Notes under the pieces: generated by a model
Databases searched by the model: none
Told to the model about the DNA's origin: nothing
What the model saw: the letters and a program-made list of their open reading frames with translations, nothing else
NCBI GenBank assembly: GCA_964437555.1
Contig: CAYTHI010000002.1
Location: 7,653-71,652 of the forward strand
DNA from: Candidatus Woesearchaeota archaeon
Lineage (GTDB): Archaea > Nanobdellota > Nanobdellia > Pacearchaeales > GW2011-AR1
Direction: 5' to 3'
DNA: 64,000 bases
Translations under genes and position numbers: made by a program
Shown: piece after piece, positions 5,501 through 59,664 of the stretch
Numbering within the stretch: the stretch's first letter is position 1
Layout of the letters: every line of letters starts with the position of its first letter

Positions 5501-7390
5501 ATCAGAAATGAATTCTTTGTCAGCATCCAAATGCTCTGCTTTGATAATTTCTATAATGAATGTCTGGTTGCTCAAACTAGGAGTAATCCATTCTACATAA
5601 TCGTAAACTCCATTTGAATTTATATCTGAAACTAAAGTCGGCTGAACATAAGCGTCCTTTTCCTTCCAAAAGATTTTCAGAGCATTAGGACTTTTAACTT
5701 CGAAACTTTCAGGAATATTTGTGAAAGACAAAACATCTGTATAATGAACACTATCAGGCCCAATAATCACAACCTCTTTTTTATCTTCCAATACACTTTC
5801 AATAGCATAAGGAGCAGGCGTTTCATACTCAATAGTCACTTCCTGAACTACATCTTGCCCTGTGCTGTCAACAACTTCCACAACATTGCCATCCACAGCT
5901 TTTTCAGATACACTAATCCCGCGTTCATCAGAAATAACAAGCCCGGTCTGACTGCCAAAAAGATTCTTTATCCAGTAAACAACAGAAATTAGGAAGTTGC
6001 CTTCCTTTTCCAGCTTAAGCTTTGCAACAACCTCGCCGGTTATTGCTGAAGATTCATCTGATGTAGTTTCTGCTGAAGCAGATTCCGGACTATTTGAAAC
6101 TGTTCCTGATGAGCCTTGCCCGCTGGATAAACTCTCTTCTACAATCTCTATAATATCTTCAACATCTTCTCCCCTGCTCGAATCAACATTAATCCGCTCC
6201 GCAATATCTCCTGACTTGCTCCTGTCAACCCTGACTATCCCGACAACCTCAACATTTTCTGCATATTCAGGAAGAGTAACAGTAACTTTTTTGGCCTCCT
6301 TTTCTGTTAAATCAATTTTTTGCACCCATTTCACAGGCTTTCCTAAAACGGCGCCGGTCTGCATTTTATCAACAACTATGTTCGCGGTTGCATTTTCTTC
6401 AGCAATGCCGCTGGCATTTTCTCCGGCTATCTCATTAGCTACTACTGAAACTCTCTTTTCCGTTTTGGCTAAAATTTTTCCATTATAAAATAAAGTTATT
6501 GAAATTAATTTGACGCTCTTTTCCGCAATTAACTCAAATTTGGATAATTCTATTTCTGCAATAAGCTTTTCAGAATCAGCCAGGAAATCCTCGCCAAACC
6601 CCTCAACTTTCTCAGAATAATCCGTTGAAACAATTAATTCTCCTCGTCTTACTCTGACATCAACTGAAGAGTCATCTATCACAAAACCACTGGCTTTTAC
6701 GCTTCCGGGCACAATCTCGGCATCCTGATTGCTTTCAATAGAATAAACAAAATTATTATCTTTGCTTGCCTTTCCTGAAATAATAAAAAAAGTTTCATAA
6801 ACTGTTCCTCCCGTAATTGGAGGCTTTTTTCCGCTGTCTCCGCCACCGCTATCCAAATCTGAAGGGGCTGCTGTATCCGAACCGCTTTCATCGCCTCTTC
6901 CGGCTTGATCTGCAGAACTCACGCTTGGAGAACCTCCCCCGCCTCTTCCGGAAGTTGATCCTATCTTTTGAGAAATGCGAATTTCAAATTCAACTTCAGG
7001 ATAAATTATCTTCTCTCCTAAAACACCATATCCCTTTCCGAAACCCACAATGTCTGTGCCTTCAGCATAAAACTCTCCAGAAACATGAGCTAAAGAAACA
7101 AGGCTGGAAAGAGAAAATTCTTTTGTTTTATCATCAATCTGAACAACAACTAACGAATCCTTTGGAACAAGCTCCCCTCCAAAAAGAGAAAGTTCCAAAA
7201 CTCCTCCGATTGGCTCCCCGACTTCATAAATAGCGCCCATTGTGTCAAGAGAAATTTTTCCAGTAGCTTTAGAAAATATTGAAGAATCTATAAACGAAAA
7301 AAATAAGGCTAATACAGCAGCAACAAGAAAAAAGTAAAGAACATACTTTCCTGCCCTTCCCGACTTATCAAAATTCATTTCATCCATCAC
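2567..7390 (-). CDS. Giant (1607 aa) cell-surface protein: N-terminal TM anchor, Ser/Gly/Asp-rich linkers, Asn-rich parallel beta-helix-like repeats, C-terminal dockerin-like Ca-binding repeats
   Basis: Single 4.8-kb ORF; N-terminal hydrophobic helix (YVLYFFLVAAVLALFFSF); long stretches of NxS/T-rich short repeats (GNNHILQNMTVRNTNSS...) typical of pectin-lyase-fold beta helices and of N-glycosylated archaeal surface proteins; C-terminal DVTGDGQITLADVLSI and DINCDDEMDVVDLANIG resemble dockerin/EF-hand-like repeats. Confidence 0.7.
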   Translation of the reverse strand: MMDEMNFDKSGRAGKYVLYFFLVAAVLALFFSFIDSSIFSKATGKISLDTMGAIYEVGEPIGGVLELSLFGGELVPKDSLVVVQIDDKTKEFSLSSLVSLAHVSGEFYAEGTDIVGFGKGYGVLGEKIIYPEVEFEIRISQKIGSTSGRGGGGSPSVSSADQAGRGDESGSDTAAPSDLDSGGGDSGKKPPITGGTVYETFFIISGKASKDNNFVYSIESNQDAEIVPGSVKASGFVIDDSSVDVRVRRGELIVSTDYSEKVEGFGEDFLADSEKLIAEIELSKFELIAEKSVKLISITLFYNGKILAKTEKRVSVVANEIAGENASGIAEENATANIVVDKMQTGAVLGKPVKWVQKIDLTEKEAKKVTVTLPEYAENVEVVGIVRVDRSKSGDIAERINVDSSRGEDVEDIIEIVEESLSSGQGSSGTVSNSPESASAETTSDESSAITGEVVAKLKLEKEGNFLISVVYWIKNLFGSQTGLVISDERGISVSEKAVDGNVVEVVDSTGQDVVQEVTIEYETPAPYAIESVLEDKKEVVIIGPDSVHYTDVLSFTNIPESFEVKSPNALKIFWKEKDAYVQPTLVSDINSNGVYDYVEWITPSLSNQTFIIEIIKAEHLDADKEFISDIYDEVKALDGVWSEAIPSEDYVRVTFERNLTSENDITLYPRIVSGNPGIEVYTFNGSEVIAVFDNLIPEEYNKVYLTGLKGEQDTFDLRVLNGDVEFDHIIDPDFEPSTVATLRAQACSAENLGAQNSYASACDGIYPGNCGGEEITDFLSCDDGSSETQTFNTAQYGGVNISSYNSSVTNCATTGDVFLCYEWWIVGSNPASCLIAVDADGGGSYSNVTTTCPGTSANPGLTCTNVTSLETWTCSNFFGSSGTRAMARDEITRTGIAAGGQVLTTDALFFNVTYVLADQTAPSVTINFPANTTYDDDDLPFIFNVSLNENGSLVQYSLDDGINNLTMSSMDNREHNATNSSIALGGYNFRVFANDTSGNNNYTASVRFTITNSSLITGCKELNVAGKTYVQGSSFVPAGLEACINITAQNVTFNGNGFSIGNTITSVDLIYSDQYGTVVNNVNLIRSTGLSSNVGIKLLNSNNSKVLNSKFSGNVGVSLQGVYNSNFSNNNFTTSDRGVNAVGTADGNNSFTNNSHYNANYGLVLGGDNHEVSASEFNNMTVNALFMSGNNYNVSKSIFINAVGAVEISSDGNNSRFDNLTFIDSVDTPITLSGNNHILQNMTVRNTNSSYYDIDFAGANRTNVIDSYFANYTFSGTGGILRYVETTQGEIYFLRDVNGSGTNLSNDIRLSNNLAVVESTNNIGLNRSANITFYNMPANFTEPYIFRDSSICFDCYNYTSLNAATVLFNVTSFTSYYIADLGQCLALPQCAEGSDCNVTSSCLLYSELCTNNICDFTNLKLNASLYTLFDSSGNGRNLVLNVSQNVTFLPGNQIVFRGKAGAQGGNGGIVNATVSNLFNRTNGVIDGVGGAGALTEGAAGAGGNGGIFQMNAHGFIRSFSSTNLAGGSGASSGTAGATIVNKNLNCPVDADVTGDGQITLADVLSITNNYNKALGQEGYNASYDINCDDEMDVVDLANIGFEYEDR

Positions 7391-7474
7391 CTATTTCTCC
7401 TTTAAAAAACACCTCACTTAGAATATAAATTTTGGTTTATATACTTTTATACGATGAAAATTTAATAGGAAGTG

Positions 7475-8362
7475 CTAATCAGTCGTTATAATCTTCTTAT
7501 CATCAAAAATCAAAACGCTATGCTCAGCCTGCGCAACTTTCTTGCCTCTGGCTTCAACTAATTGATGCTCTTGTTTTAAAAGACCTGCCTGCTCAATTTG
7601 CCTTAAAGCTAACAGCCCTCGTGAGCCAAATTTCTTATGAATCCAGCGGGAGCAAAAAGGCAGCTCATTATACTCTTCTATTATAAAATTCAAAACTTCT
7701 CTGGCAAAATTATCCCTGGCATTTCCTGCTCCAATAAGCCAAAATATTCCAGAGGGCTTTCCGTCCTTAACTTTGCCTAATCCGTTTGTTGAAAATGGCT
7801 CAATTGCATAAAGCCCTTCTTTTAAAAAACTCTCATCAGCATTATCAACATTTGGTATTGTCAGCCCGGCATGCAAATCATACCTCTTTATTCCATGCCC
7901 TGTCAGATTCACAACAGGAGAAAAACCTTTTTTTTCTATTTCTTCTCCAATAATCTTTCCTATTTCCCTAAGCTTGACTCCTTCCTTAATAAAATTCAAT
8001 GCCTTATTCAAAGAACTTTCGGCAGCCTCAATTAATTCTTTATTTTCCGAGTTATTTTCCAAATCCAAACTGAAAGCAGTGTCTGCGACAAATCCATCAA
8101 CATGAACTCCCACGTCAACTTTTAGCAAGCCATGGGCAACATCTTCTGAATCCCATGCCGGTGTAGAGTGAGCAGCAATTTCATCGATGCTTAAATTCAC
8201 AGGAAACGCCGGCTTTCCTCCAAGCTCAAAAATTTTTGCATCCAATTTCTCAACAATCTCAAGCAATTTCATTCCCGGCTTAATAATGCTTTTTGCATAA
8301 TCCATCACTTCCTTGGCAATCTTGCCCGCCTTCTTTATCTTTTCAATTTCATCTTGTTTCAT
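7475..8362 (-). CDS. map: Methionine aminopeptidase, type 2 (archaeal)
   Basis: 295 aa; arrangement typical of archaeal MAP2 with its inserted domain; motifs such as AFPVNLSIDEIAAHSTP and HVDGFVADTAFS (metal-binding pita-bread fold). Confidence 0.8.
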   Translation of the reverse strand: MKQDEIEKIKKAGKIAKEVMDYAKSIIKPGMKLLEIVEKLDAKIFELGGKPAFPVNLSIDEIAAHSTPAWDSEDVAHGLLKVDVGVHVDGFVADTAFSLDLENNSENKELIEAAESSLNKALNFIKEGVKLREIGKIIGEEIEKKGFSPVVNLTGHGIKRYDLHAGLTIPNVDNADESFLKEGLYAIEPFSTNGLGKVKDGKPSGIFWLIGAGNARDNFAREVLNFIIEEYNELPFCSRWIHKKFGSRGLLALRQIEQAGLLKQEHQLVEARGKKVAQAEHSVLIFDDKKIITTD

Positions 8363-13951: not shown

Positions 13952-14079
13952 GGATTTTTGAAAATTGCAATTAACATATGCGATTAAGCGACCTGAAAGG
14001 CTCGAGTGTAGAAATTTTTCCCTCGTGAAACAGAGCTGGAAAAATTGCGGAACGCTCGAGTGTTTTTGCGTAGCAAAAA

Positions 14080-14363: not shown

Positions 14364-15083
14364 ATGGACAAATCAAAATATAGTGTTGAAGAAATTATTT
14401 TTAAAAAGTGCCCTATATGCAAAAAAGGAAAAGTAGAAAAATTAGCACCAAGGGGTTTTTTTAGTTTCGCTAAATCTACTAAAATGATTTGTAATAAATG
14501 TTTAGCACAATTCTCTGAAGATGAAGAATATCAAGAGGAACCAACTTACATATTGGATTTATCTGAATCTAATGAAAAGAATAAATATGAAGGTGAAACA
14601 TTAAAGAAAAGTGAATGGGAAAGAGGTATTTCTGATTTGGATTTATGCGTAAAAACAAATAACTTACCAAAAGCAAGTGTAGTCGGTTTGAAAATTATAC
14701 TAAAGCCAGGAGAACAAGCCCATTGGTATTCTTCTTCAAAACTTATGGAAGAAAGAGCAATAAGACGTTCACATGGTGGAGCTGTAAGGGTAATGAAAGG
14801 TGTATATATTGGAGGAAGCCAATCAGAATCTCATGGAGAATTAAGAACAATAGATAATGGGGGATTATTACTCACAAATCAAAGATTAATTTTTAATGGC
14901 GGATTCAAAAATATAGAATATCCTCTTAGTAAAATTGTTTCTGTAGAAGAATATAAAGATTCAATAGAAATAGGTTCAACTAACAGACAGAAAGTTCAGT
15001 TATATGTAGTTCAAGAACCACATAAATGGGCGACATTTGTTAAAATGGCTGTTCAAATGTCCCATAATGTAAAGAAAAAATAA
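14364..15083 (+). CDS. Zn-ribbon plus bacterial-PH (bPH/GRAM-like) domain protein
   Basis: N-terminal CPICKKG...CNKC zinc ribbon; C-terminal GGLLLTNQRLIF motif typical of bPH_2/YdbT-like PH domains. Confidence 0.55.
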   Translation: MDKSKYSVEEIIFKKCPICKKGKVEKLAPRGFFSFAKSTKMICNKCLAQFSEDEEYQEEPTYILDLSESNEKNKYEGETLKKSEWERGISDLDLCVKTNNLPKASVVGLKIILKPGEQAHWYSSSKLMEERAIRRSHGGAVRVMKGVYIGGSQSESHGELRTIDNGGLLLTNQRLIFNGGFKNIEYPLSKIVSVEEYKDSIEIGSTNRQKVQLYVVQEPHKWATFVKMAVQMSHNVKKK

Positions 15084-15451: not shown

Positions 15452-16270
15452 ATGCAAAGCATGCAAAAAGAAGAACACCTTAAAAGGCTAAGGCAGGAGC
15501 TTGAGATAAGGAATTTTTCTAAGGAAACAATAAAATCCTACTTAAGTTCAGTCAATAAATTCCTTGATTATTCTAATGGCAATGAAATGAGCCAGCAAAA
15601 AGTCAAAGATTACATACAATCAAGAATAAGCAATAAAAATCCATCTACAATAAGGCAGGGCATATTCGCAATTCAGTTCTTTTTTGATAAGGTTTTAGGC
15701 CAGAAAATATACATTCCAAGGCCTAAAAAGAACAAAACTCTCCCTGAAATACTTACTCTTGAAGAAGCAAAAAAGCTTGTGAATGCTCCTTTAAACCCAA
15801 AACATCAGCTAATATTAAAAATTTTGTACGGATGCGGCTTACGTGTAAGTGAAGTTATAAGTTTGATGAAAAAAGACATTAATTTAGATGAAAGTATGAT
15901 TCACATAAGAATGGCAAAAGGAAAAAAGGACAGGTTCGTAAAAATTCCTGAAAGCGTAAAAGAAGAGTTAGAGCATTATGCGGTTCTTAACAAAGAAGAA
16001 CTCTTATTCCCCTCGCAAAGAGGCGGAAAGCTTACAACAGCAGGAATTCAGGCAATAGTTGAAAAATCAGCCAAAAAAACAGGAATAAAAAAAGATGTTT
16101 ATCCGCACCTGCTAAGGCATAGTTTTGCAACCCATCTCCTTGAGCAGGGCACAGACTTAAGAATAATCCAAAAATTATTAGGGCATTCAGATATCAGAAC
16201 TACACAAATGTATCTTCAGATTTCACAGCAATCTATAAAAAACATAAGAAGCCCCTTAGACAGCAAATAA
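15452..16270 (+). CDS. xerA: Tyrosine site-specific recombinase, XerA/XerCD-like
   Basis: 272 aa; C-terminal LLRHSFATHLLEQGTDLRIIQKLLGHSDIRTTQMYLQI contains the R..H..R..Y catalytic signature of tyrosine recombinases. Confidence 0.85.
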   Translation: MQSMQKEEHLKRLRQELEIRNFSKETIKSYLSSVNKFLDYSNGNEMSQQKVKDYIQSRISNKNPSTIRQGIFAIQFFFDKVLGQKIYIPRPKKNKTLPEILTLEEAKKLVNAPLNPKHQLILKILYGCGLRVSEVISLMKKDINLDESMIHIRMAKGKKDRFVKIPESVKEELEHYAVLNKEELLFPSQRGGKLTTAGIQAIVEKSAKKTGIKKDVYPHLLRHSFATHLLEQGTDLRIIQKLLGHSDIRTTQMYLQISQQSIKNIRSPLDSK

Positions 16271-20510: not shown

Positions 20511-20532
20511 GAAGAAATAAAGATTAACTTGT

Positions 20533-20619
20533 GATCCCGTAGCTCAGCCTGGTTAGAGCACTGCTCTGATAAGCCTATCAGAAAGGCAGGGGTCCCAAGT
20601 TCAAATCTTGGCGGGATCA
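20533..20619 (+). tRNA. tRNA-Ile (anticodon GAT) with a 12-nt intron at the canonical 37/38 position
   Basis: Acceptor GATCCCG/CGGGATC, D-arm GCTC-AGCCTGGTTA-GAGC, anticodon stem CTGCT/GGCAG with loop CTGATAA, T-arm CCAAG-TTCAAAT-CTTGG; the inserted GCCTATCAGAAA has TATCAG pairing with CTGATA (BHB-like). Confidence 0.75.
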
Positions 20620-20654
20620 TTCATAAAAGAGCATACTTAAACAAAGAGAGCAAA

Positions 20655-35304: not shown

Positions 35305-38300
35305 ATGGAGATTAAAAAACAAGAGGAATTTGTCTTAGAAGCAAAAAAGTTCTTTGAAGTATACAAAAAAGATATTGGAAAATCTTTGAGAAGCGAAGAA
35401 AGCGTTATTTATCTTAATTTCGGAGATGTTCTGCAATTTTCTCCTTCTTTAGCTGAAAAGCTCGTAGACACTCCGGAAGAAACCCTTGCGCTGTTAGAGC
35501 TTGCAATGGAAGAATCAGGATTAAGAGAAAGGCCAAGGATTAGGATTAAAGAGCTTCCCGCTTCTACAGATATAAAAATAAGAGAAATAAGAGCAAAACA
35601 TTTAGACAAGTTCCTGCAGATAGAAGGAATTGTCAAGCAAGCTTCTGAAGTAAGGCCGCAGGTAGTGAATGCAAGATTTGAATGCCCAACATGCGGCGCA
35701 ATTCTCTCTGTATTGCAGATAGATAAAAAATTCAGAGAGCCCGCGAGATGTTCATGCGGAAGAAAAGGCCAATTCAATTTGCTTTCAAAAGAAATGGTTG
35801 ATGCTCAAAGATTAGTTATAGAGGAAGCTTCTGATTCTCTCGACGGAGGAGAACAGCCGAGAAGAATAAATATTTTTCTAAAAGAAGATTTAGTAGATCC
35901 TCGAATGGAAGAAAGAACAACTCCTGGAAGCAGGGTTAAAGTTCTCGGTGTTCTGAAAGAAGTTCCGATTCCTTTGCAAACAGGCTCTATATCTACTCGC
36001 TTTGATCTCGCAATAGAAGCCAACAACATGATTCCGTTGGAAGAAACATTTGAAGACTTGCAAATAAGTGAAGAAGAGGAAAAGCAGATAAATGAGCTGG
36101 CTTCAGACCCTTACGCTCACAAGAAGCTTTCTCAAAGCATTGCCCCAAGCGTATATGGATTTGAAAGAATAAAAGAGGCAATTCTTTTGCAATTATTCTC
36201 AGGAGTAAAAAAAGTAAAATCTGATGGAGGAAGAACAAGGGGAGATATCCATATACTTTTAGTAGGAGATCCGGGCGTAGCGAAATCCGTAACTCTGAAA
36301 TTTGTTTCAACAATTGCCCCGAAAGGAAGATATGTTTCAGGAAAAGCAGCGACTGCAGCAGGATTAACAGCGGCAGTTGTAAAAGACGAATTCTTAAAAG
36401 GATGGTCTTTAGAAGCAGGAGCAATGGTATTGGCAAATAAAGGTCTTGTCTGTATAGATGAGATAGAAAAGATGGATGAGCAGGATCGTTCAACTATGCA
36501 TGAAGCAATGGAGCAGCAATGCTACCATAAAGACACGATTATATCCATGGCTGATGGTTCAGAAGCTAAAATAGGAGATTTAGTAGAAGAGCTATTAGAA
36601 AGAAATAAAGGCAAAATAATCAAAGGCAAAGACTGCCTTATCCTTCCTGTTGAAAACCTAGAAGTGCTTACAACTGATTTTACAAATGTCTTCAAAACAA
36701 AAGCCACGAGGATAAGCAAGCATAAAGCCTTTGACAGATTTATCAAAATAAAATTCTCTCATGGCAGAGAGATAACAGTCACGCCAGAGCATCCTGTGTT
36801 TACTGCTGAAAATGGAGAAATAATCACGAAAAGAGCTGATGAAATAAAAATAGGCAATTCTGCCCCCATACCCTTAAATATTCCGATAATAGGAAAAGAA
36901 CAAAACTTCGAACCAATACTGCTGATAGAAAATGAGAGAATAAAGCAGCAAATAAAAATTCCGCAGAAGAACTGCCAAGAATTATTCAAAATAGTAGGGT
37001 ACTTAATTTCAGAGGGCTCCAGGGAAAAAAACAGAGGGAAAATTGTAGGAGTTAATTTTACAAATAAAGATAAACGCGTATTGGAAGATTTTGAGAGCGG
37101 TATGCATAAAGTTTTTAACCTAAAGCCTTACAAACAAACTAAGATAGACGACCATGAGCCAAGAGATATGTACAGATATTCTTCAGTTAATCTAATCAGT
37201 TTTATAAGTAAGAATATGCCATCTTTGCTTAGAAAGTCAGGCAGTAAAGAAATCCCTGAATTTGCAATGAGAGGAAGAAAAGAAGATATCGCAAAAATGC
37301 TTTCTTCCTTATTTGAAGGAGACGGGTATGCTGCGATTAAAAAGAGAACAATAAGAATTGGATATAAAACCAAAAGCAAGAGACTTGCAGAACAAATTCA
37401 GGATTTATTGTTAAGATTTGGCATAAGAAGTTCTATAACAGAACACATGGGATTTTATAGGGTGGGAATAGCTGAATATACCAATATTCAAAGATTTAGA
37501 AAGGATATTGGTTTCTTCACAGAAGAAAAAAACAGAATAATAGACTACTATCTTAGAACTAAGCTCATTAAAAGGCATGTAAAAAACATAATACCGGTCG
37601 AATTTAATGAGAAAATTATCAGTATCCTCAAAGAAGAAGGTATAAGTGACGTTGGGAAATATAAAATATACGATATAATCTATGACCATCAAAAAAGAAA
37701 AGATAAATTTTCATTTTCAACAGAATTCCTAAGAAATCTTCTGCCATTGATAAAGGGTTATAAAAATAAAAAATATATAGAGCAATTCACAAAAGATATT
37801 GGCTGGGAATATATCAAAGGAATAGAGATAATTGAAAACGAAGATGAAAATTGGGTTTATGACATTACGATAGAGCCAAATCACTCTTTTATTTCACAAG
37901 CTGCTATACTTCATAATACTGTCACCATCTCCAAAGCAAACATCCAGGCATCACTAAGAGCCGAGACATCTGTTCTTGCAGCAGGAAACCCAAAGCTCGG
38001 AAGATTTGACCCATTTACGCCGATTCCGCAACAGATAGACATTTCTCCTGCCTTGCTCAGCAGATTTGATGTTATTTTTGTCCTTCGTGATTTGCCAAAC
38101 AAAGGCCAGGATGAAGCAATAGCCTCGCATATATTGGAAGAACACAAACAAACAGTAATAAGAGATGTAGTTGAGCCAAATCTACTAAGAAAATATATTG
38201 CCTATGCCAAAAAGATAAAACCAAAACTGACAGAAGAAGCAAGCGATGAAATAAAAGATTTCTACATTTCATTAAGAAATCAATCAGTCAGAACAGATAC

Positions 38301-38712
38301 AGACATAAAGCCAATTCCTATAACAGCAAGGCAATTAGAAGCAATAGTAAGATTATCGGAAGCCTGCGCACGTGTAAGATTAAGTGAAACAGTTTCAAGG
38401 GATGACGCAAAAAAAGCAATAAATCTTCTGAAATTTTCTCTTAGCCAGGTCGGCTATGATGAAGAGACAAAAGCGTTTGATATAGACAGGATAACAACAG
38501 GAATCTCATCTTCAAAGAGAGGAAAAATAATAAGCGTAAAAGAAACATTGACAAAATTAGAGTCAAGGCTTGGAAAGCTTATTCCCATAGAAGAACTGCA
38601 AAAAGAATTAGAAGGAAAAATATCAGAAACAGAGATTGAAGAAGCAATAAATCAGCTTGACAAATCCGGGGATATTTTCAGGCCCAAGCCTGGTTATATT
38701 CAGAAGTTATAA
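35305..38712 (+). CDS. mcm: MCM replicative helicase with an in-frame 466-aa intein
   Basis: Zn-finger CPTCG...CSCG, Walker A GDPGVAKS, Walker B CIDEIEKMD, arginine finger SRFD; exteins total ~669 aa. Confidence 0.9.
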   Translation: MEIKKQEEFVLEAKKFFEVYKKDIGKSLRSEESVIYLNFGDVLQFSPSLAEKLVDTPEETLALLELAMEESGLRERPRIRIKELPASTDIKIREIRAKHLDKFLQIEGIVKQASEVRPQVVNARFECPTCGAILSVLQIDKKFREPARCSCGRKGQFNLLSKEMVDAQRLVIEEASDSLDGGEQPRRINIFLKEDLVDPRMEERTTPGSRVKVLGVLKEVPIPLQTGSISTRFDLAIEANNMIPLEETFEDLQISEEEEKQINELASDPYAHKKLSQSIAPSVYGFERIKEAILLQLFSGVKKVKSDGGRTRGDIHILLVGDPGVAKSVTLKFVSTIAPKGRYVSGKAATAAGLTAAVVKDEFLKGWSLEAGAMVLANKGLVCIDEIEKMDEQDRSTMHEAMEQQCYHKDTIISMADGSEAKIGDLVEELLERNKGKIIKGKDCLILPVENLEVLTTDFTNVFKTKATRISKHKAFDRFIKIKFSHGREITVTPEHPVFTAENGEIITKRADEIKIGNSAPIPLNIPIIGKEQNFEPILLIENERIKQQIKIPQKNCQELFKIVGYLISEGSREKNRGKIVGVNFTNKDKRVLEDFESGMHKVFNLKPYKQTKIDDHEPRDMYRYSSVNLISFISKNMPSLLRKSGSKEIPEFAMRGRKEDIAKMLSSLFEGDGYAAIKKRTIRIGYKTKSKRLAEQIQDLLLRFGIRSSITEHMGFYRVGIAEYTNIQRFRKDIGFFTEEKNRIIDYYLRTKLIKRHVKNIIPVEFNEKIISILKEEGISDVGKYKIYDIIYDHQKRKDKFSFSTEFLRNLLPLIKGYKNKKYIEQFTKDIGWEYIKGIEIIENEDENWVYDITIEPNHSFISQAAILHNTVTISKANIQASLRAETSVLAAGNPKLGRFDPFTPIPQQIDISPALLSRFDVIFVLRDLPNKGQDEAIASHILEEHKQTVIRDVVEPNLLRKYIAYAKKIKPKLTEEASDEIKDFYISLRNQSVRTDTDIKPIPITARQLEAIVRLSEACARVRLSETVSRDDAKKAINLLKFSLSQVGYDEETKAFDIDRITTGISSSKRGKIISVKETLTKLESRLGKLIPIEELQKELEGKISETEIEEAINQLDKSGDIFRPKPGYIQKL
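36520..37917 (+). mobile_element. Intein with LAGLIDADG homing-endonuclease domain inside mcm
   Basis: Begins with Cys immediately after EAMEQQ and ends ILHN followed by Thr (+1); LAGLIDADG-type blocks VGYLISEGS and LSSLFEGDGYA. Confidence 0.8.
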
Positions 38713-44070: not shown

Positions 44071-44093
44071 CGTTTTTGCCCCACAATTATTAT

Positions 44094-44181
44094 GTCCCCG
44101 TAGCTCAGTTGGTTAGAGCGCACGGCTGTTAAAATTAGTTTAGAAACCGTGATGTCCGAGGTTCGAGTCCTCGCGGGGACG
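44094..44181 (+). tRNA. tRNA-Asn (anticodon GTT) with a 14-nt intron
   Basis: Acceptor GTCCCCG/CGGGGAC, D-arm GCTC-AGTTGGTTA-GAGC, anticodon stem CACGG/CCGTG with loop CTGTTA-A split by AAATTAGTTTAGAA, T-arm CGAGG-TTCGAGT-CCTCG. Confidence 0.75.
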
Positions 44182-44230
44182 TTCTATCTCTCTAAGATAA
44201 ATTTAAATTTAATTATTAATTACCAATACA

Positions 44231-48308: not shown

Positions 48309-48788
48309 TTAAGCAACCAATTTTGTTCCATTTTGAGGTTTTGCCAAAAGATGCTCAACTTCTAAATAGTTATCTTGAGTAAGCCTACGCGTAAGCATTT
48401 TTTCAAAGAAGCGCATTTCTGCTAACCTTCCACCAGCTTGGTTCGATTGACGATAAGTTTTTCTTCCTAGCTTATCAAGACCAGAAAGAATTTGCGACGA
48501 AAGGTCGTCATACGAAGCAAATCTTTGAGCAAAACGCCTAAACTCTATCCAGTTTAAAGGTTCATTAGAATTAAATGCTCGACGGGTTTCATCTTCAGAA
48601 AATCCCAGTCGTTCGTTATTAATAACTAAACGCCAATAGCTCTCTTCAGTTCCATTATATCCTTCTGGAAGACTTACAGGATCACAAGCAGCAAGAACAC
48701 CATAAATCGTGTCCGCATGTCTCTGAAGGCTATCTGCTCTTCCCGCAATCCTCTCTCTCAAAGTCGCATCCATCAAACATAATGACAT
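48309..48788 (-). CDS. Hypothetical protein with GC-enriched, Arg-rich composition (possible HEPN-like R-x6-H motif)
   Basis: 159-aa ORF whose composition and codon use differ from neighbouring genes; RADSLQRH near the N-terminus. Confidence 0.45.
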   Translation of the reverse strand: MSLCLMDATLRERIAGRADSLQRHADTIYGVLAACDPVSLPEGYNGTEESYWRLVINNERLGFSEDETRRAFNSNEPLNWIEFRRFAQRFASYDDLSSQILSGLDKLGRKTYRQSNQAGGRLAEMRFFEKMLTRRLTQDNYLEVEHLLAKPQNGTKLVA

Positions 48789-48875: not shown

Positions 48876-49955
48876 TTATCTGAAGACTTCTATGCCTAAT
48901 TCAGACATTTCTGATCTGGCTCCTGAAGGTTCAGGATATTGGTCTTTGCCTAAAACATAAGGCGATTTAACGCCTGTAATTATAGTAATGACCCTTACCT
49001 TTCCTCCGAACTCTTTGTTGATTCTTGCGCCAATAATAACATTGGCTTCCGGATTCAAATTCTCTGTTACAAGCTGGCCAACACCGGCAAATTCTTCAAG
49101 CTTGAAGTCAGGCCCGCACGTTATATGGATTAAAGAACCTGTGGCGCCCCTGTAATCAACATCCAATAAAGGATGTGTCAGAGCCTGCCTTACAGCTTCC
49201 TCAACTCTCATAGAACTGTCAGACTCTCCAATGCCAATAACTGCAACGTTACCGTTCTTCATAATAGCTGAAACGTCAGCATAGTCTAAGTCGATCAATG
49301 ATGGCAAGGTAATTGTTTCCACTATTCCTTTAATCATTGTACTTATCAGCTCGTTTGCTACTGCGAAGGCCTGTTCCATTGGCAAATTACCTGCTATATC
49401 TACAAGCCTGTTGTTATCAATAACAATAACAGTATCTGTAACCTCTTTAAGCTCTTGAAGTCCGAATTCTGCCTTATCTACTCTGGCCCTTTCACACTCA
49501 AATGGCATTGTAACAACTGCGATTACAACTCCGCCTGCTTCTTTAGCAAGCTGTGCAACAACCGGAGCAGTTCCTGTTCCTGTACCTCCGCCCATTCCTG
49601 CCAGAACAAATACCATGTCCGCCCCTGAAGTAGCTTTCTTAAGCTCTGACAAAGCTTCCTTTGCAGCTTCTCTTCCTTTTTGAGGATATCCGCCGCATCC
49701 TAAACCTCTTGTCAATTCCTTGCCAATTAAGATTTTTTCATCCGCCTTGGTAATACTTAAGTGCAAAGCATCTGTATTTATGCCGTAAACACTGGCGCCG
49801 TTAATGCCTTTGTTGAAAAGCCATGTAGACATATTACATCCTGCTCCTCCGCAGCCAAAAACCTTGATATTGGCCTTTCCGGCCCTTAATTCATCAAAAT
49901 TAATACTATGCGTAGATGCATTCTGAATTGCTTCTTTTGCAAAATCTAGTACCAT
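48876..49955 (-). CDS. ftsZ: Cell division GTPase FtsZ
   Basis: Tubulin signature AGMGGGTGTGTAPVVA; N-terminal GCGGAG. Confidence 0.9.
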   Translation of the reverse strand: MVLDFAKEAIQNASTHSINFDELRAGKANIKVFGCGGAGCNMSTWLFNKGINGASVYGINTDALHLSITKADEKILIGKELTRGLGCGGYPQKGREAAKEALSELKKATSGADMVFVLAGMGGGTGTGTAPVVAQLAKEAGGVVIAVVTMPFECERARVDKAEFGLQELKEVTDTVIVIDNNRLVDIAGNLPMEQAFAVANELISTMIKGIVETITLPSLIDLDYADVSAIMKNGNVAVIGIGESDSSMRVEEAVRQALTHPLLDVDYRGATGSLIHITCGPDFKLEEFAGVGQLVTENLNPEANVIIGARINKEFGGKVRVITIITGVKSPYVLGKDQYPEPSGARSEMSELGIEVFR

Positions 49956-50084
49956 TTACTCTTTTTTTCATACCTCCTTTCAGTTTTATGTTAGAAATCT
50001 ATACTCCCTTCTTTAAATATTTGACTATATCACAATTGCAACAATAAAAAGAGTTATAAATCTATAAATCGCCTGTTTTTTACA

Positions 50085-50693
50085 ATGATAGCAATAAATC
50101 CTTCAAGGCAGGCGGCAGAAGAAGACTCATATCGCGAAGATTCTGATGAAGAGCTCTTTGAAAGATACTGTTCAGAACGCGATGAGCGCGCTTTTGAAGT
50201 TTTAGTAGCAAAATATACTCCAATGATAATAAGCTATTGCGGTGCTGCACTACCTTATTTAAAGGAAGACATAACTCAAGAAACATTTATGGCAGTGCAT
50301 AAAAACAGACACGGATTTAACACAAGCAAAGGAAGTTTTAAAAATTGGATATACCAAATCGCTCGGAGCAAAGTAATAGATCACCTAAGAAAATCTAAAG
50401 GAAAAAAGATGCTATCTTTAGACGCCCAGGAGCCCGATGAAAATAGCCTGGACTCATTATTAGAAGCAAGGCAGGAGAGGGAAATAAACACGACAGATTT
50501 TGGCTCGCTGCAGCCGCATGTTGATATTCTTCCGCATTCCCAAAGAGAAAATATAATTTTAGTTTATGAAAGAGGCTTTAGTCTTAGGCAGTCTGCAGAG
50601 ATTAGGCAAAAAAAGATTGGCACAATAAAAAGCTCTTTAAGTGCCGGTCTTAAAAATCTTAGAGGCAATACCCGAGCTATTCAAGCAGCCTAA
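50085..50693 (+). CDS. ECF-type RNA polymerase sigma-70 factor-like protein (bacterial-type) in archaeal context
   Basis: Region-2 block FEVLVAKYTPMIISYC...EDITQETFMAVHKNRHGFN...FKNWIYQIARSKVIDHLRK and region-4 HTH block RENIILVYERGFSLRQSAEIRQKKIGTIKSSLSAGLKNLR. Confidence 0.65.
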   Translation: MIAINPSRQAAEEDSYREDSDEELFERYCSERDERAFEVLVAKYTPMIISYCGAALPYLKEDITQETFMAVHKNRHGFNTSKGSFKNWIYQIARSKVIDHLRKSKGKKMLSLDAQEPDENSLDSLLEARQEREINTTDFGSLQPHVDILPHSQRENIILVYERGFSLRQSAEIRQKKIGTIKSSLSAGLKNLRGNTRAIQAA

Positions 50694-51715
50694 TCCCTCG
50701 CAAAGCTCTCTGCAACTAAAAGCGGAAAAAGTATCGTCGCATCGCCAAAAACTTTGACACTTTTAGCATTTTTCCTGATTTTTCCCCATGAGATTGCTTC
50801 TTCAGGCAATGCCCCTGAATCAGAAGCATCATATTCGTAAGAAGTATTAATATAAACAGCATAATCAGCTCCGTTCCTAAGCATATTTGCGTTAAGAATA
50901 GAATGCTTGACAACTCCTGCACCCAAAACAATAATTCCTGATTTTTTCAAGCCAATTGTTAAGTCATTAAATCTCTTTACATCTTCAGCGATATCCAAAA
51001 CAATATTTTTTTTAAATTTGAAAAAATAAATATTGTCCCCTAAAGCCCCGTCTGTAATTGCAGGGCAATAAACAGGAATTTTATTTTTCCACGCCCAATA
51101 ATAAATACTCTTCCCGTTATTTATTTTCTCTCCCAATTTCCAAATAAGTTCAGAAGGAGTTATAGCCCTGTTCTCCTTCTTAGACAAATTATACAATTCC
51201 TCAAGAACAGGATGAACAAATTTTTCAAATTCAACATACCTGTTATTTGGAACAAAAATATTTCCTATCCTGTTTATCCCTCTATTTCTTAATTCCTTTC
51301 CGGATGCCCTGAAATCTCCTATGTAAAAATCACCTAAGCATTTTATAATATCTTCCTCAATTCCTCCCGCAGTCGTCACAAGACAATTGACTTTTTTATG
51401 TTTTACAAGCCATCTTATAATATCTCTATTCCCTGAAGAAACCATGTTTGATGTATATCCTAAAAATATAAATGCATTTTCCTTAATCATGCTATTAATA
51501 ATATCAATGGCTTTGGAAAATTCACTCGCCTGCGCACCCGAACTTCTAAAGCTATCCAAAATCCCGGCATAATCAATCCCTTCATCAAAATCATATCCTT
51601 CTACTTTAATGCCTTGAATTTCCTCGCTTTCTCTAAGTAAGTTTTTCCTGGCAATTCTCTCATTTGTATTAAATATTTTTTTTGCCATTTTAACATAATA
51701 AACAGAACAAAACAA
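50690..51715 (-). CDS. dys: Deoxyhypusine synthase
   Basis: GYTSNMVSSGNRDIIRWLVKH...LVTTAGGIEEDIIKC conserved DHS blocks. Confidence 0.85.
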   Translation of the reverse strand: MFCSVYYVKMAKKIFNTNERIARKNLLRESEEIQGIKVEGYDFDEGIDYAGILDSFRSSGAQASEFSKAIDIINSMIKENAFIFLGYTSNMVSSGNRDIIRWLVKHKKVNCLVTTAGGIEEDIIKCLGDFYIGDFRASGKELRNRGINRIGNIFVPNNRYVEFEKFVHPVLEELYNLSKKENRAITPSELIWKLGEKINNGKSIYYWAWKNKIPVYCPAITDGALGDNIYFFKFKKNIVLDIAEDVKRFNDLTIGLKKSGIIVLGAGVVKHSILNANMLRNGADYAVYINTSYEYDASDSGALPEEAISWGKIRKNAKSVKVFGDATILFPLLVAESFARD

Positions 51716-56444: not shown

Positions 56445-57743
56445 TTAAGGCTTCCATCTTGTCATCGTCCTTGGAAAGCCAATTGCATCCTTTATTGTAT
56501 CAAGGCCGCATATCCATTTAACCAATCTTTCTGTTCCTAATCCAAATCCTCCATGAGGAACAGCCCCATATTTATGAATGTCAAAATAATACTGATAGTC
56601 TTCCAGCTTCTCTCCTTTTGCCTTCAACGATTTCTTTAATTCATCTATGTTTGTATCTCTCTCGCTTCCCCCGATTAATTCTCCGTTTCCTTCAGGCCCA
56701 AGCATGTCAAAGCACAAAGCTAATTTGGGATTTTTAGGGTCTCTTGGCTTGTAAAAAGCCATTATTTCTTTAGGATAATGAGTTACAAAAACAGGTATGT
56801 CATGCGATTCCATAAACTTTTCTTCTTCTATAGTGCGCAAGTCCTTTCCCCACTCCACATGCATCTTCTTCTTTTCTTTCAAAACTTTCAGAACCTCATC
56901 ATACCTAACTCTGGGAAATTTCTTCTTTAAAACAGCTTCCAGCTTTTTTACGTCTCTCTCCAAAAATTTCAGCTCCTCTTTATTTACCTCTAAAACTTTT
57001 TTTACAACATATTTAGTCATTTCCTCTGCATAACTCATTAATTCGTCTAAATCAGCCCATGCAATTTCCATTTCAGTATGCCAATACTCTGTTAAATGCC
57101 GTGAAGTTTTACTTTTTTCTGCCCTGAATGAAGGAGCAATTGTATAGATTTTCTCTAAGCCGTACATGGCTGCCTCTGCATACAACTGCCATGTCTGCGC
57201 CAGATACATTTTTTTGTCAAAATATTTTACTTCAAACATGCTTGGTCCATCTTCAGCCCCGCCTGGAATCAAAATCGGCGATTGAAATTCATAAAATCCC
57301 TTGCCTTTAAAGTATTCATGCAAAGCACCTGTGACAGTGCTTCTTATTTTCATAATAGAAGTCATTTTCCTGCTTCTAATCCACAAATGCCTTCTGTCGC
57401 CTAATAATTCTTCATTCAAATCCTTGCTAATAGGAAATTCGTCGCTAAGCCCGACAATTTCAATTTTATCAGCATGAATTTCATATCCTGTCGGGGCTCT
57501 TTTATCCTCTTTGATACTTCCACGAATTTCAACACTTGCTTCAATCTTCAATTTATCAATATCATTCCATTGCTTCTCAAAGTCCTTCTTCTCAAAAACG
57601 CATTGAATTATATCCGATGAATCACGAAGAACAATAAACTTAATTGCATTGCTTCCTCTTTCTCTGTGTATCCAGCCGCGCACAGCAACTTCGCCTTTGC
57701 CTTTTTTCATGGCTTCTTTTATTGAAATAAATTCTGATTTCAT
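56445..57743 (-). CDS. asnS: Class IIb aminoacyl-tRNA synthetase, probably asparaginyl-tRNA synthetase
   Basis: Motif 2 FRAEKSKTSRHLTEYWHTEMEIAW (the EF/YW pattern is typical of AsnRS), motif 3 GLGTERLV; N-terminal OB anticodon-binding domain. Confidence 0.6.
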   Translation of the reverse strand: MKSEFISIKEAMKKGKGEVAVRGWIHRERGSNAIKFIVLRDSSDIIQCVFEKKDFEKQWNDIDKLKIEASVEIRGSIKEDKRAPTGYEIHADKIEIVGLSDEFPISKDLNEELLGDRRHLWIRSRKMTSIMKIRSTVTGALHEYFKGKGFYEFQSPILIPGGAEDGPSMFEVKYFDKKMYLAQTWQLYAEAAMYGLEKIYTIAPSFRAEKSKTSRHLTEYWHTEMEIAWADLDELMSYAEEMTKYVVKKVLEVNKEELKFLERDVKKLEAVLKKKFPRVRYDEVLKVLKEKKKMHVEWGKDLRTIEEEKFMESHDIPVFVTHYPKEIMAFYKPRDPKNPKLALCFDMLGPEGNGELIGGSERDTNIDELKKSLKAKGEKLEDYQYYFDIHKYGAVPHGGFGLGTERLVKWICGLDTIKDAIGFPRTMTRWKP

Positions 57744-58356: not shown

Positions 58357-59664
58357 TTAAGGAGTAAGTCTGCCCGGATCTCTTGCAAACAAAACAGCTT
58401 CTCTGATATTTTCTAACCCTAAAAGCACCATTGTAATGCGTTCTATTCCTAAGGCAAAGCCGCCGTGGGACGGAACTCCATATTTAAAAAACTTAGTAAA
58501 CCAGTCTACAGACTTTAATGGCAAATTTCTTTCTTTAACATTTTTTATTAGCTTATCATAACGATTTTCCCTTTGCCCACCAGAAGACATTTCCATTCCT
58601 CTATAATAGAGGTCCGTGCTTCTTGCATATTTCTCTCCTTCTTCACAATAGACATAAAATGGCTTAACCTTAAATGGAAATTTATTAAGGAAATAAAATT
58701 CTGTTCCGGGATATTTTTCCTGAACATGCCGCCATAATAATTTTTCAGCTTCAGCATCTAAATCCTCTCCGATTTTAATTTTTTTCCCCATTTTTCCGAG
58801 AATTTCATAAATCTCTGGAAAATTTATTTCTGGGAAAGGTGCCTTCGGTATTTTTAATGTGGCTCCTAAAGTTTCCAATTCTTGTTTGCATTCACTATTC
58901 ACTTTCTCAAAAGCAGAAATAATGACTTGTTCTTCAACTCTCATAACCTCTCTTTCAGACTTGATAAAAGCAATCTCCACAGCACAGGTCCTATGCTCGG
59001 TCAGATGCTTTACAGTGTTGCTTTTTTCAGCTCTCCAGCTTGGTCCAATATCGTAAATTCTTTCTATGCCTCCCGCAACTGTTAATTGCCTATGAAGCTG
59101 GGGGTCTTGCCTTAAATATGCCTTGGTCTCAAAATATTTTACTTCAAAAGCCTCGCTTCCTGATTCAGAAGCGACGCCCATTAGAGCAGGGGTAAAAACC
59201 TGTAAAAAACCATGCTTGTTAAGGTATTCCTGCATTCCCTCTATCAACTTAGCTTGTATCCTAAAAACCGCTCTATATTTGGGAGTTCTCAAACTAAGAG
59301 ACCTGTAATCCAATCTTGTAGGCAATTCCGCCCTGACCGCTTTCTCATTAACCTGCATAGGCAGCTCCTCCGCATTATTTAATATCTTAATATCGAAAAC
59401 CTCAACTTCAACATCTGCTCTGGCAAATTCCGCCTTAACGCTTGCCTTCTTCGCCTTCCCTTTAATCTCAACAATACTCTCTAAACTTAAATCTGAAATT
59501 TTACCCATTAAACCTTTATCACTGACAACACACTGAATCATTCCTGTATAATCCCTAAGAAGAATAAAACTAATCTTAGATAAATTCCTTATTTCATGAA
59601 CCCATCCATTTAATACTACTTGCTCTCCCGACTTAACCTCTTTAATAAAAGTCCTCTCCATCAC
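58357..59664 (-). CDS. aspS: Class IIb aminoacyl-tRNA synthetase, probably aspartyl-tRNA synthetase (archaeal type)
   Basis: Motif 2 WRAEKSNTVKHLTEHRTCAVEIAF, motif 3 GFALGIERI; paralog of 56445..57743. Confidence 0.55.
   Translation of the reverse strand: MMERTFIKEVKSGEQVVLNGWVHEIRNLSKISFILLRDYTGMIQCVVSDKGLMGKISDLSLESIVEIKGKAKKASVKAEFARADVEVEVFDIKILNNAEELPMQVNEKAVRAELPTRLDYRSLSLRTPKYRAVFRIQAKLIEGMQEYLNKHGFLQVFTPALMGVASESGSEAFEVKYFETKAYLRQDPQLHRQLTVAGGIERIYDIGPSWRAEKSNTVKHLTEHRTCAVEIAFIKSEREVMRVEEQVIISAFEKVNSECKQELETLGATLKIPKAPFPEINFPEIYEILGKMGKKIKIGEDLDAEAEKLLWRHVQEKYPGTEFYFLNKFPFKVKPFYVYCEEGEKYARSTDLYYRGMEMSSGGQRENRYDKLIKNVKERNLPLKSVDWFTKFFKYGVPSHGGFALGIERITMVLLGLENIREAVLFARDPGRLTP

Follow-up and report, generated by a model that had tools for sequence, protein, structure and literature searches.

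An Extracytoplasmic-function Sigma Factor-type Gene between ftsZ and Deoxyhypusine Synthase in a Pacearchaeota-type Archaeon, a Candidate Domesticated Regulator

Introduction

Sigma factors are a defining feature of bacterial transcription, and initiation in archaea is carried out by TBP, TFB and TFE; what, then, is an open reading frame (ORF) for a recognizable sigma factor doing between ftsZ and the deoxyhypusine synthase (DHS) gene of an archaeal contig? The ORF lies at positions 50085 to 50693 of a 64,000-nucleotide stretch of contig CAYTHI010000002.1 (assembly GCA_964437555.1, Candidatus Woesearchaeota archaeon), which is referred to here as the window. A sequence-only reading of the window had recognized a bacterial-type extracytoplasmic-function (ECF) sigma-70 gene and had offered three explanations, namely that the gene was acquired and put to new use as a DNA-binding regulator, that it is an inert relic, or that the assembly is chimeric. 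The comparative analysis presented here favors, by a modest measure, the view that the ORF is a real gene on the chromosome of a Pacearchaeota-type DPANN archaeon, that it derives from a bacterial ECF (group IV) sigma-70 factor since domesticated, and that it most likely serves as a transcription regulator.

The existence of sigma genes in DPANN archaea is already on record and was not known to the sequence-only reading. Castelle et al. (2021; PMC8204110) described sigma-70 genes (fam00359) in DPANN genomes, particularly prevalent in Woesearchaeota, on contigs with archaeal markers and with mis-binning ruled out; no anti-sigma factor was found, TBP, TFB and TFE were present, and the mechanism was called unclear. 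Full-text literature searches revealed no other paper addressing sigma-70 genes in archaea, and the word "archaea" is absent from the 2021 paper on ECF reclassification (PMC7826278). Likened by description, fam00359 and the gene examined here represent the same phenomenon, a sigma-70-type gene on a DPANN contig with archaeal markers and no anti-sigma gene. The earlier paper stresses Woesearchaeota and contains no locus, selection or promoter analysis, whereas the present gene belongs to a Pacearchaeota-type clade and to a conserved FtsZ-sigma-DHS locus. To the published record this work adds that locus, the pattern of presence and absence, a quantified selection regime and rate, the sigma-like constraint on the protein and the archaeal promoter.

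Results

Assignment of the Protein to the ECF Sigma Family

By sequence and by predicted fold, the product of the ORF is a member of the ECF sigma family. The gene and the domains of its product are as follows.

50085..50693, + strand: ECF-type sigma-70 family gene, 202 amino acids from an ATG start (ORF with Pfam, TIGR02937 and PDB matches)
50142..50408, + strand: sigma-2 domain (regions 2.1–2.4), approximately residues 20–108 (Pfam region 2; AlphaFold helices 21–108, pLDDT >90)
50409..50495, + strand: interdomain linker, residues 109–137, ∼29 residues, disordered in the model (pLDDT <50 at 109–117 and 125–137)
50496..50687, + strand: sigma-4 domain with helix-turn-helix, approximately residues 138–201, recognition helix diverged (AlphaFold helices 136–201; sub-threshold Pfam region-4 matches)

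The Pfam model Sigma70_r2 (PF04542) matched residues 40–105 with E = 7.6e-14 and 51.7 bits against a gathering score of 24, and the full-length NCBIfam model TIGR02937 (sigma70-ECF) matched residues 36–193 with 69.7 bits against a cutoff of 42.9; in total, 88 NCBIfam sigma models match the protein. The region-4 models, spanning residues 148–193, scored 17.3 bits (PF04545 Sigma70_r4, gathering score 24.1) and 16.5 bits (PF08281 Sigma70_r4_2, gathering score 25.7), values that are weak because the sigma-4 domain of the window protein is the most diverged in its group; matches to both models are on record for the orthologues at loci L002 and L005. No Pfam match to region 1 or region 3 was obtained, leaving two helical domains and a linker only. 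The profile check that the sequence-only reading had suggested was thus significant for region 2 and sub-threshold for region 4. Accordingly, the region-2 signature of that reading is confirmed by Pfam and TIGR02937, and its "clear" region-4 signature holds for the helical domain of the AlphaFold model and for TIGR02937 but not at the Pfam gathering scores.

Structural comparisons gave the same picture. A phmmer search of PDB sequences returned 19 chains, all of the sigma-70 family and nearly all named as ECF factors, with SigW the best at 1.8e-10. The AlphaFold model, built on an 86-sequence alignment, had a mean predicted local distance difference test (pLDDT) score of 81.8 and comprised two helical domains with a disordered linker between them; Foldseek aligned the whole of it with PDB entries of which the best 30 were nearly all ECF sigmas, including SigW, SigH, AlgU, SigK and RpoE. 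Bacillus subtilis SigW, Escherichia coli RpoE, Pseudomonas aeruginosa AlgU and Mycobacterium tuberculosis SigH likewise consist of sigma-2 and sigma-4 with a short variable linker in ∼200 residues, and the signature motifs ED..QETF, W.Y.IA.N..D.LRK and P.GT[VI]KS are common to bacterial ECF factors and the protein described here. In the archaeal orthologues, the linker differs in both sequence and length. Only one sigma-like ORF is present in the window.

Contiguity of the Locus and Its Archaeal Setting

The neighbors of the sigma gene were identified by Pfam, as the sequence-only reading had named them, and the short overlap with the convergent DHS gene that it described is real from the coordinates of the stop codons.

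48876..49955, − strand: ftsZ, left divergent neighbor (Pfam Tubulin, E = 7.4e-44; FtsZ_C, E = 1.9e-31)
50690..51715, − strand: DHS gene, right convergent neighbor (Pfam DS, E = 2.2e-113)
50690..50693, both strands: tail-to-tail 4-nucleotide overlap of the sigma and DHS stops (sigma TAA at 50691–50693; the DHS stop is the reverse complement of 50690–50692)

The true start of DHS is likely to give a protein of 332 residues ending at position 51688, which is also the length called in an independent gene prediction from the Logan assembly described below. The replicon itself is archaeal, given that the window carries genes for aRF1, an intein-containing MCM helicase, eIF1A, eIF2-beta and ribosomal protein L15e together with probably intron-containing tRNA genes; the first, second and third of these had already led the sequence-only reading to call the genome archaeal, and that call stands.

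Misassembly or misbinning of a bacterial fragment into an archaeal contig would account for the bacterial type of the protein family, which is the sole suspicious feature; nothing else was found in its favor. The Logan assembly of SRR12113430, which is separate from that of the window and was possibly built from the same reads, contains a 5.7-kb contig identical to the window from position 49919, which falls inside ftsZ near its 5′ end, across sigma, DHS and DHH and onward, and so spans both junctions. The GC content at third codon positions of the sigma ORF (0.315) is like that of the host, its neighbors ranging from 0.17 to 0.38. Synteny between the window and L002 extends for ∼23 kb, from MCM to an asparaginyl/aspartyl-tRNA synthetase-type gene, and at least 10 further archaeal contigs, from different samples, have the FtsZ-sigma-DHS arrangement. 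The 4-nucleotide overlap also argues against a join; it is the same in L002, and L007 and L064 have a similar junction. A chimera is therefore excluded, its probability being negligible, and that explanation is refuted for practical purposes.

The 3′ end of the gene (window 50682–50693) shares a further feature with L002, L007 and L064: all four orthologues end in "...AA", with the stop overlapping the DHS stop. This conserved C terminus may be a mere consequence of the overlap.

Relatives, Distribution and Inheritance

When 1.84 billion representative proteins were searched exhaustively with phmmer, no relative exceeded 38% identity, and a word-indexed protein search with the sigma protein returned the self match only. 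Two of the three best non-self phmmer matches (P0002 and P0004) proved to lie in other archaeal contigs with the same gene order, namely MnmA, nitroreductase, (cupin), FtsZ (−), sigma (+), DHS (−) and, further on, a metallo-beta-lactamase-fold protein. A profile built from seven archaeal sigmas, scored against the 8000 candidates sharing most words, gave 4243 matches that were mostly bacterial ECF factors, the proteins of L021 and L148 being the only additions. One match, P0151, labeled as from a Methanomethylicota metagenome-assembled genome (MAG), was set aside, since its contigs of 4.5–5.2 kb contain an overlapping ORF downstream and lack informative markers. The best bacterial sigma matches, at ∼36% identity, were of mixed origin and included a contig with a primary sigma factor and a MacB/FtsX ABC transporter, a contig with L21, L27 and Obg, and a Patescibacteria MAG.

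The locus itself was followed through its neighbors. A DHS scan of one genome per GTDB species yielded 61 loci, almost all from Pacearchaeota, Woesearchaeota or Nanoarchaeota MAGs, the nearest being those of Pacearchaeota CG1_02_39_14 and UBA92 at 81% identity. Profile hidden Markov model scans of six-frame ORFs in these loci revealed four with a sigma gene flanked by DHS and FtsZ (L007, L051, L064 and L021, the last with two tandem copies), and in five others (L022, L025, L035, L039 and L045) DHS adjoins FtsZ across a gap of ∼90–110 nucleotides without sigma. In a neighbor-joining tree of DHS, the window, L002, L005, L007 and L051 form one tight clade in which all five members carry sigma, and the sister group L022/L035/L045 has none. 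A metagenome scan with FtsZ returned 80 loci at 84–87% FtsZ identity; it added the sigma-bearing loci L070, L086 and L130 and found again duplicates of L007, L021 and L051, with unrelated genes filling the slot in most of the others. Beyond P0002 and P0004, the syntenic sigmas are thus those of L007, L051, L064, L070, L086, L021/L074, L148 and L130, and the syntenic orthologues have a common N terminus, MIA(I/Q). From its patchy presence among the loci, sigma is an accessory gene restricted to a portion of a single DPANN order. Within the clade of the window, at least, it was inherited vertically.

Tandem sigma pairs lie between DHS and FtsZ in L021 (6946–8379, − strand; identical in L074) and in L148 (2977–4282, + strand). 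The copies are orthologous between the L021 and L148 genomes, and sigma-4 is degenerate in the second copy of L148. The slot upstream of and divergent from ftsZ is variable in Pacearchaeota-type genomes (L068–L147), where it is filled by unrelated small genes whose products by eye resemble HIT-family, toxin-antitoxin-type or nucleotidyltransferase-type proteins, or by genes for DHH, beta-lactamase-fold or DHS proteins. Small minus-strand ORFs upstream of ftsZ in loci lacking sigma were considered as hidden sigma genes and rejected, being by eye unrelated types of protein.

Expression Signals

Promoters were compared in the aligned ftsZ-sigma intergenic regions, in which the following elements were recognized.

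50046..50069, + strand: putative archaeal promoter of sigma, with a purine-rich, B-recognition element (BRE)-like AAAAAGAG, TTATAAAT at 50054–50061 and a second TATAAAT at 50063–50069 (sequence and alignment)
50012..50029, − strand: ftsZ promoter element TTTAAATATTTGACTATA, divergent from the sigma promoter and conserved with or without sigma
49972..49977, − strand: ftsZ Shine-Dalgarno sequence GGAGGT, kept in all aligned loci, sigma present or not

The BRE/TATA-like element reads AAGA(G/A)YTTAAAAA in the relatives and AAAAAGAGTTATAAAT in the window. From the end of the A/T heptamer to the ATG the distance is exactly 21 nucleotides in L002, L005, L007 and L051 and 24 nucleotides in the window, and no Shine-Dalgarno sequence precedes the sigma ATG in these aligned regions. 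Such BRE/TATA spacing without a Shine-Dalgarno sequence is the geometry expected of an archaeal promoter for leaderless mRNA. Given the fixed spacing and the missing Shine-Dalgarno sequence, sigma is probably transcribed as a leaderless mRNA from an archaeal BRE/TATA-type promoter of its own. The ftsZ and sigma promoters are ∼35–40 nucleotides apart.

Bacterial-type signals were not enriched. No autoregulatory motif of the ECF GGAAC...CGT type was present upstream of sigma in the aligned intergenic regions. A scan of the window for two common ECF specificities gave no match to GAAAC-N15-18-CGTA and three to GGAAC-N15-18-CGT against 0.95 expected, a count equaled or exceeded in 10 of 100 shuffles, and a scan for sigma-70-type promoters between 48.2 and 51.8 kb gave 10 sites against 9.3 ± 2.5 expected. 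One of the three GGAAC-N15-18-CGT matches, at 14049–14071 (+), is intergenic and precedes an unannotated ORF at 14364–15083; the count is within chance.

Constraint on Individual Residues

The 13 archaeal sigmas were aligned with 120 bacterial ECF sequences and with E. coli RpoE, the RpoE sequence used agreeing with PMC6648896 at the seven residues given there. Conservation per column was correlated between the archaeal and the bacterial ECF sequences (r = 0.69), and the most conserved archaeal positions are the bacterial signature positions. These are listed below with the RpoE residue and archaeal conservation.

D62 (RpoE D48), region 2.2: 0.85
Q65 (RpoE Q51), region 2.2: 1.0
E66 (RpoE E52), region 2.2: 0.77
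W88 (RpoE W73), region 2.3: 0.85
I92 (RpoE I77), region 2.3: 0.92
S95, consensus N (RpoE N80), region 2.4: 0.69
K177, consensus P (RpoE P166), region 4.2: 0.92
G179 (RpoE G168), region 4.2: 1.0
T180 (RpoE T169), region 4.2: 1.0
K182 (RpoE R171), region 4.2: 1.0
S183 (RpoE S172), region 4.2: 0.85

R102 is also conserved in the archaeal family as it is in bacterial ECF factors, and an R-G pair at 163–164 is typical of the archaeal group. In sigma factors, regions 2.3 and 2.4 handle the −10 element. Region 2.2 of the bacterial proteins provides the polar face that contacts the clamp helices of beta-prime (PMC6648896). Conservation along the archaeal protein is highest at the turn of the helix-turn-helix and the start of the recognition helix (P-x-G-T-V/I-K-S). 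Given that sigma-2 is as constrained as the helix-turn-helix, the protein would not be merely a re-used DNA-binding domain.

Evolutionary Rate and Selection

The amino acid identities of encoded proteins between the window and its two compared relatives are as follows.

FtsZ: 87% with L002, 86% with L005
DHS: 80% with L002, 78% with L005
Beta-lactamase-fold protein: 80% with L002, 77% with L005
MnmA: 61% with L002, 61% with L005
Sigma: 37% with L002, 33% with L005

Ratios of nonsynonymous (dN) to synonymous (dS) substitution were obtained by the method of Nei and Gojobori and restricted to pairs with unsaturated synonymous sites; values for pairs containing the window are unreliable because these sites are saturated.

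L064/L070: sigma 0.41 (dN 0.20, dS 0.49), FtsZ 0.006, DHS 0.058
L021b/L148a: sigma 0.29, FtsZ 0.037, DHS 0.073
L021a/L148b: sigma 0.45, FtsZ 0.037, DHS 0.073

The L064/L070 pair, the only one so tested, departed from neutrality with a Fisher p of 1.3e-5. Judged by these substitution patterns, the sigma gene is under purifying selection, with a constraint far weaker than that on its housekeeping neighbors.

Search for an Anti-sigma Partner

A cognate anti-sigma factor, usually co-transcribed, is typical of many ECF groups, although not of all. In a search that covered the neighboring genes at each locus, no anti-sigma gene adjoins sigma in any syntenic locus, so that the partner sought at the suggestion of the sequence-only reading is not conserved beside the gene. 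In every locus the neighbors are ftsZ and DHS directly, or a second copy of sigma; L130 differs downstream, where the adjoining gene is arginase/agmatinase-like by sequence motifs alone. An ORFan at 48309–48788 (−), which lies between the cupin gene and ftsZ and encodes an arginine-rich protein of 159 residues, was considered as an anti-sigma factor and rejected. No syntenic locus contains it and it is without a homologue, its model has a pLDDT of 41, it found only itself among 5.8 billion proteins, and it has no Pfam or NCBIfam match.

Other Features of the Window

Several observations were made elsewhere in the stretch. The MCM helicase gene (35305–38712, +) contains an intein with a LAGLIDADG homing-endonuclease domain, and two tRNA genes of 88–90 nucleotides, at 20532–20620 (+) and 44093–44182 (+), probably contain introns and received odd anticodon calls from ARAGORN. 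A 1607-residue ORF at 2567–7390 (−) has no Pfam match at E ≤ 1e-5. A tyrosine recombinase of the phage-integrase family (15452–16270, +) lies just upstream of topoisomerase I, and two class II aminoacyl-tRNA synthetase paralogues of the Asp/Asn/Lys type form an adjacent pair at 56445–57743 (−) and 58357–59664 (−). In L002, a SET domain is fused N-terminally to the MnmA-type tRNA methyltransferase (6570–8135, +), giving 521 residues compared with 365 in the window.

Discussion

The mechanism by which a sigma-derived protein might act in an archaeal cell can be sketched from the features conserved in the family. The protein would serve as an accessory, dispensable transcription regulator, with specific DNA recognized by sigma-4 and possibly by sigma-2 as well, and initiation by the TBP/TFB/RNA polymerase machinery would be modulated by it. 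In archaea, TFE and Spt5 dock on the clamp coiled-coil, which is homologous to the clamp helices of bacterial beta-prime; the region-2.2 surface may dock there, much as sigma-2 does on bacterial beta-prime. Control would probably be exerted through transcription or turnover of the sigma gene itself, without an anti-sigma factor. Given that ftsZ is divergent, with its promoter so close to that of sigma, autoregulation and an effect on ftsZ would be the first candidate targets.

Comparison with known systems places this candidate between categories. Unlike the bacterial ECF factors to which it is so similar in domain plan, the protein is encoded in an archaeal host, from a BRE/TATA-like promoter and apparently on a leaderless mRNA; at this locus neither an adjoining anti-sigma gene nor an autoregulatory promoter of the ECF type was found, and its orthologues diverge unusually fast. 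Plant plastid sigmas, which are nuclear-encoded, are likewise sigma genes encoded and expressed by a non-bacterial genetic system; they serve the bacterial-type plastid-encoded polymerase, PEP, and no bacterial-type polymerase is known in archaea. Archaeal regulators of the LuxR-type, Tfx and HTH_10/Bat families have a bacterial-type helix-turn-helix related to sigma region 4 and act as ordinary DNA-binding regulators (PMC5413776). They lack sigma-2, whereas the protein described here has a complete sigma-2 that is conserved as strongly as sigma-4. Of the proposal that an acquired gene was repurposed as a DNA-binding regulator, the part that stands is therefore an acquired gene kept in use; repurposing of the helix-turn-helix alone does not fit a sigma-2 that is equally conserved.

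A number of observations weigh against a domesticated regulator. Sigma factors are known to pair only with the bacterial core polymerase, an enzyme that archaea do not possess, and the activity that defines the family, binding to this enzyme and directing promoter-specific initiation, could not proceed there in its known form. The bacterial recognition-helix stretch SR(I/L)xRAR has become SSLSAGL in the window and SRLN.AL in the closest relatives, with loss of the consensus arginines that bacterial ECF factors carry, and the sigma-4 domain falls under the Pfam gathering scores; some of the conserved residues may be determinants of the fold rather than sites of interaction. The dN of sigma is 6–20 times that of DHS or FtsZ, the gene is missing from sister lineages, and in Pacearchaeota UBA92 (L051, 1040–1644, −) an in-frame TAA lies between sigma-2 and sigma-4. 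The same TAA is found in a JGI metagenome contig of identical sequence (L107, 1361–1747, −), and it could mark a pseudogene, a gene split in two or an error common to both sequences. Given the fast dN, the absence from sister lineages and this stop, any function of sigma would be dispensable. Lastly, the sub-clusters {window, L002, L005, L007} and {L064, L070, L086} and the two tandem lineages are no closer to one another than to bacterial ECF factors, which precludes a reliable donor tree and may reflect repeated independent insertion into the FtsZ/DHS slot. The pattern is compatible with either a single old acquisition followed by very fast divergence or a slot filled more than once; for L064 and the clade of the window, the shared orientation, the MIA(I/Q) N terminus and the "...AA" C terminus over the DHS stop favor a single acquisition.

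Some of the same observations would suit an old transfer that persists as a relic, neutral or in decay, intact by chance and functionless: sigma identity of 33–37% against 78–87% for FtsZ and DHS, sister loci without the gene, the L051/L107 stop and the degenerate sigma-4 of the window protein and L148b. Against this stand dN/dS ratios of 0.29–0.45 in three independent pairs, with significant departure from neutrality in L064/L070, an ORF that is intact in 12 of 13 genes although dN reaches 0.6, the retained ECF signature residues and the conserved spacing of an archaeal promoter. The inert relic of the sequence-only reading is thus disfavored and is judged very unlikely. A bacterial RNA polymerase as the target, for example through delivery of the protein to a bacterial partner, there to function either as a genuine sigma factor or as a decoy, is considered just as hard to credit. 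Retention of the region-2.2 D..QE residues that bind beta-prime and of the tryptophan of the −10 pocket would fit such a role, and fast evolution would suit a conflict between host and symbiont. The 202-residue sequence, however, has by eye no evident signal peptide or hydrophobic segment, no secretion genes lie beside sigma in any locus, and the experimentally known hosts of DPANN archaea are archaea (PMC8204110); the two common ECF promoter patterns are unenriched in the window, a result that is uninformative on a partner genome.

Somewhat less improbable, while still unlikely, is use of the sigma fold outside transcription regulation, as a protein-binding adaptor or as a conflict or defense module in a variable slot. 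The slot upstream of ftsZ does hold unrelated small genes in other Pacearchaeota, and rapid divergence, tandem duplication (L021 and L148) and patchy distribution are in keeping with such a module; the P-x-G-T-V/I-K-S stretch, being the most conserved, points instead to DNA binding, and no defense-type partner gene is conserved beside sigma. A similarly low probability is given to the strongest form of a transcriptional role, in which the archaeal polymerase would use the protein as a genuine sigma-like factor, for initiation or in an accessory role, with region 2.2 on the Rpo1/A′ clamp coiled-coil and sigma-4 and sigma-2 reading DNA. If that were true, bacterial-style promoter selection would have been grafted onto the TBP/TFB system in a DPANN lineage. 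The domesticated transcription regulator, its mode of action left more general, is the reading to which we lean.

The value of the finding is limited by the earlier publication of sigma genes in DPANN archaea. A sigma homologue that is maintained by selection in an archaeal lineage, and in which the residues specific to sigma remain constrained in both domains, nevertheless suggests that the sigma fold may have a function independent of bacterial polymerase, that it may engage the archaeal polymerase, or that it may act on a bacterial partner. The locus illustrates the uptake of bacterial regulators by DPANN archaea, and its more than 10 orthologues, with their archaeal promoter and fixed context, provide a concrete test set for binding assays.

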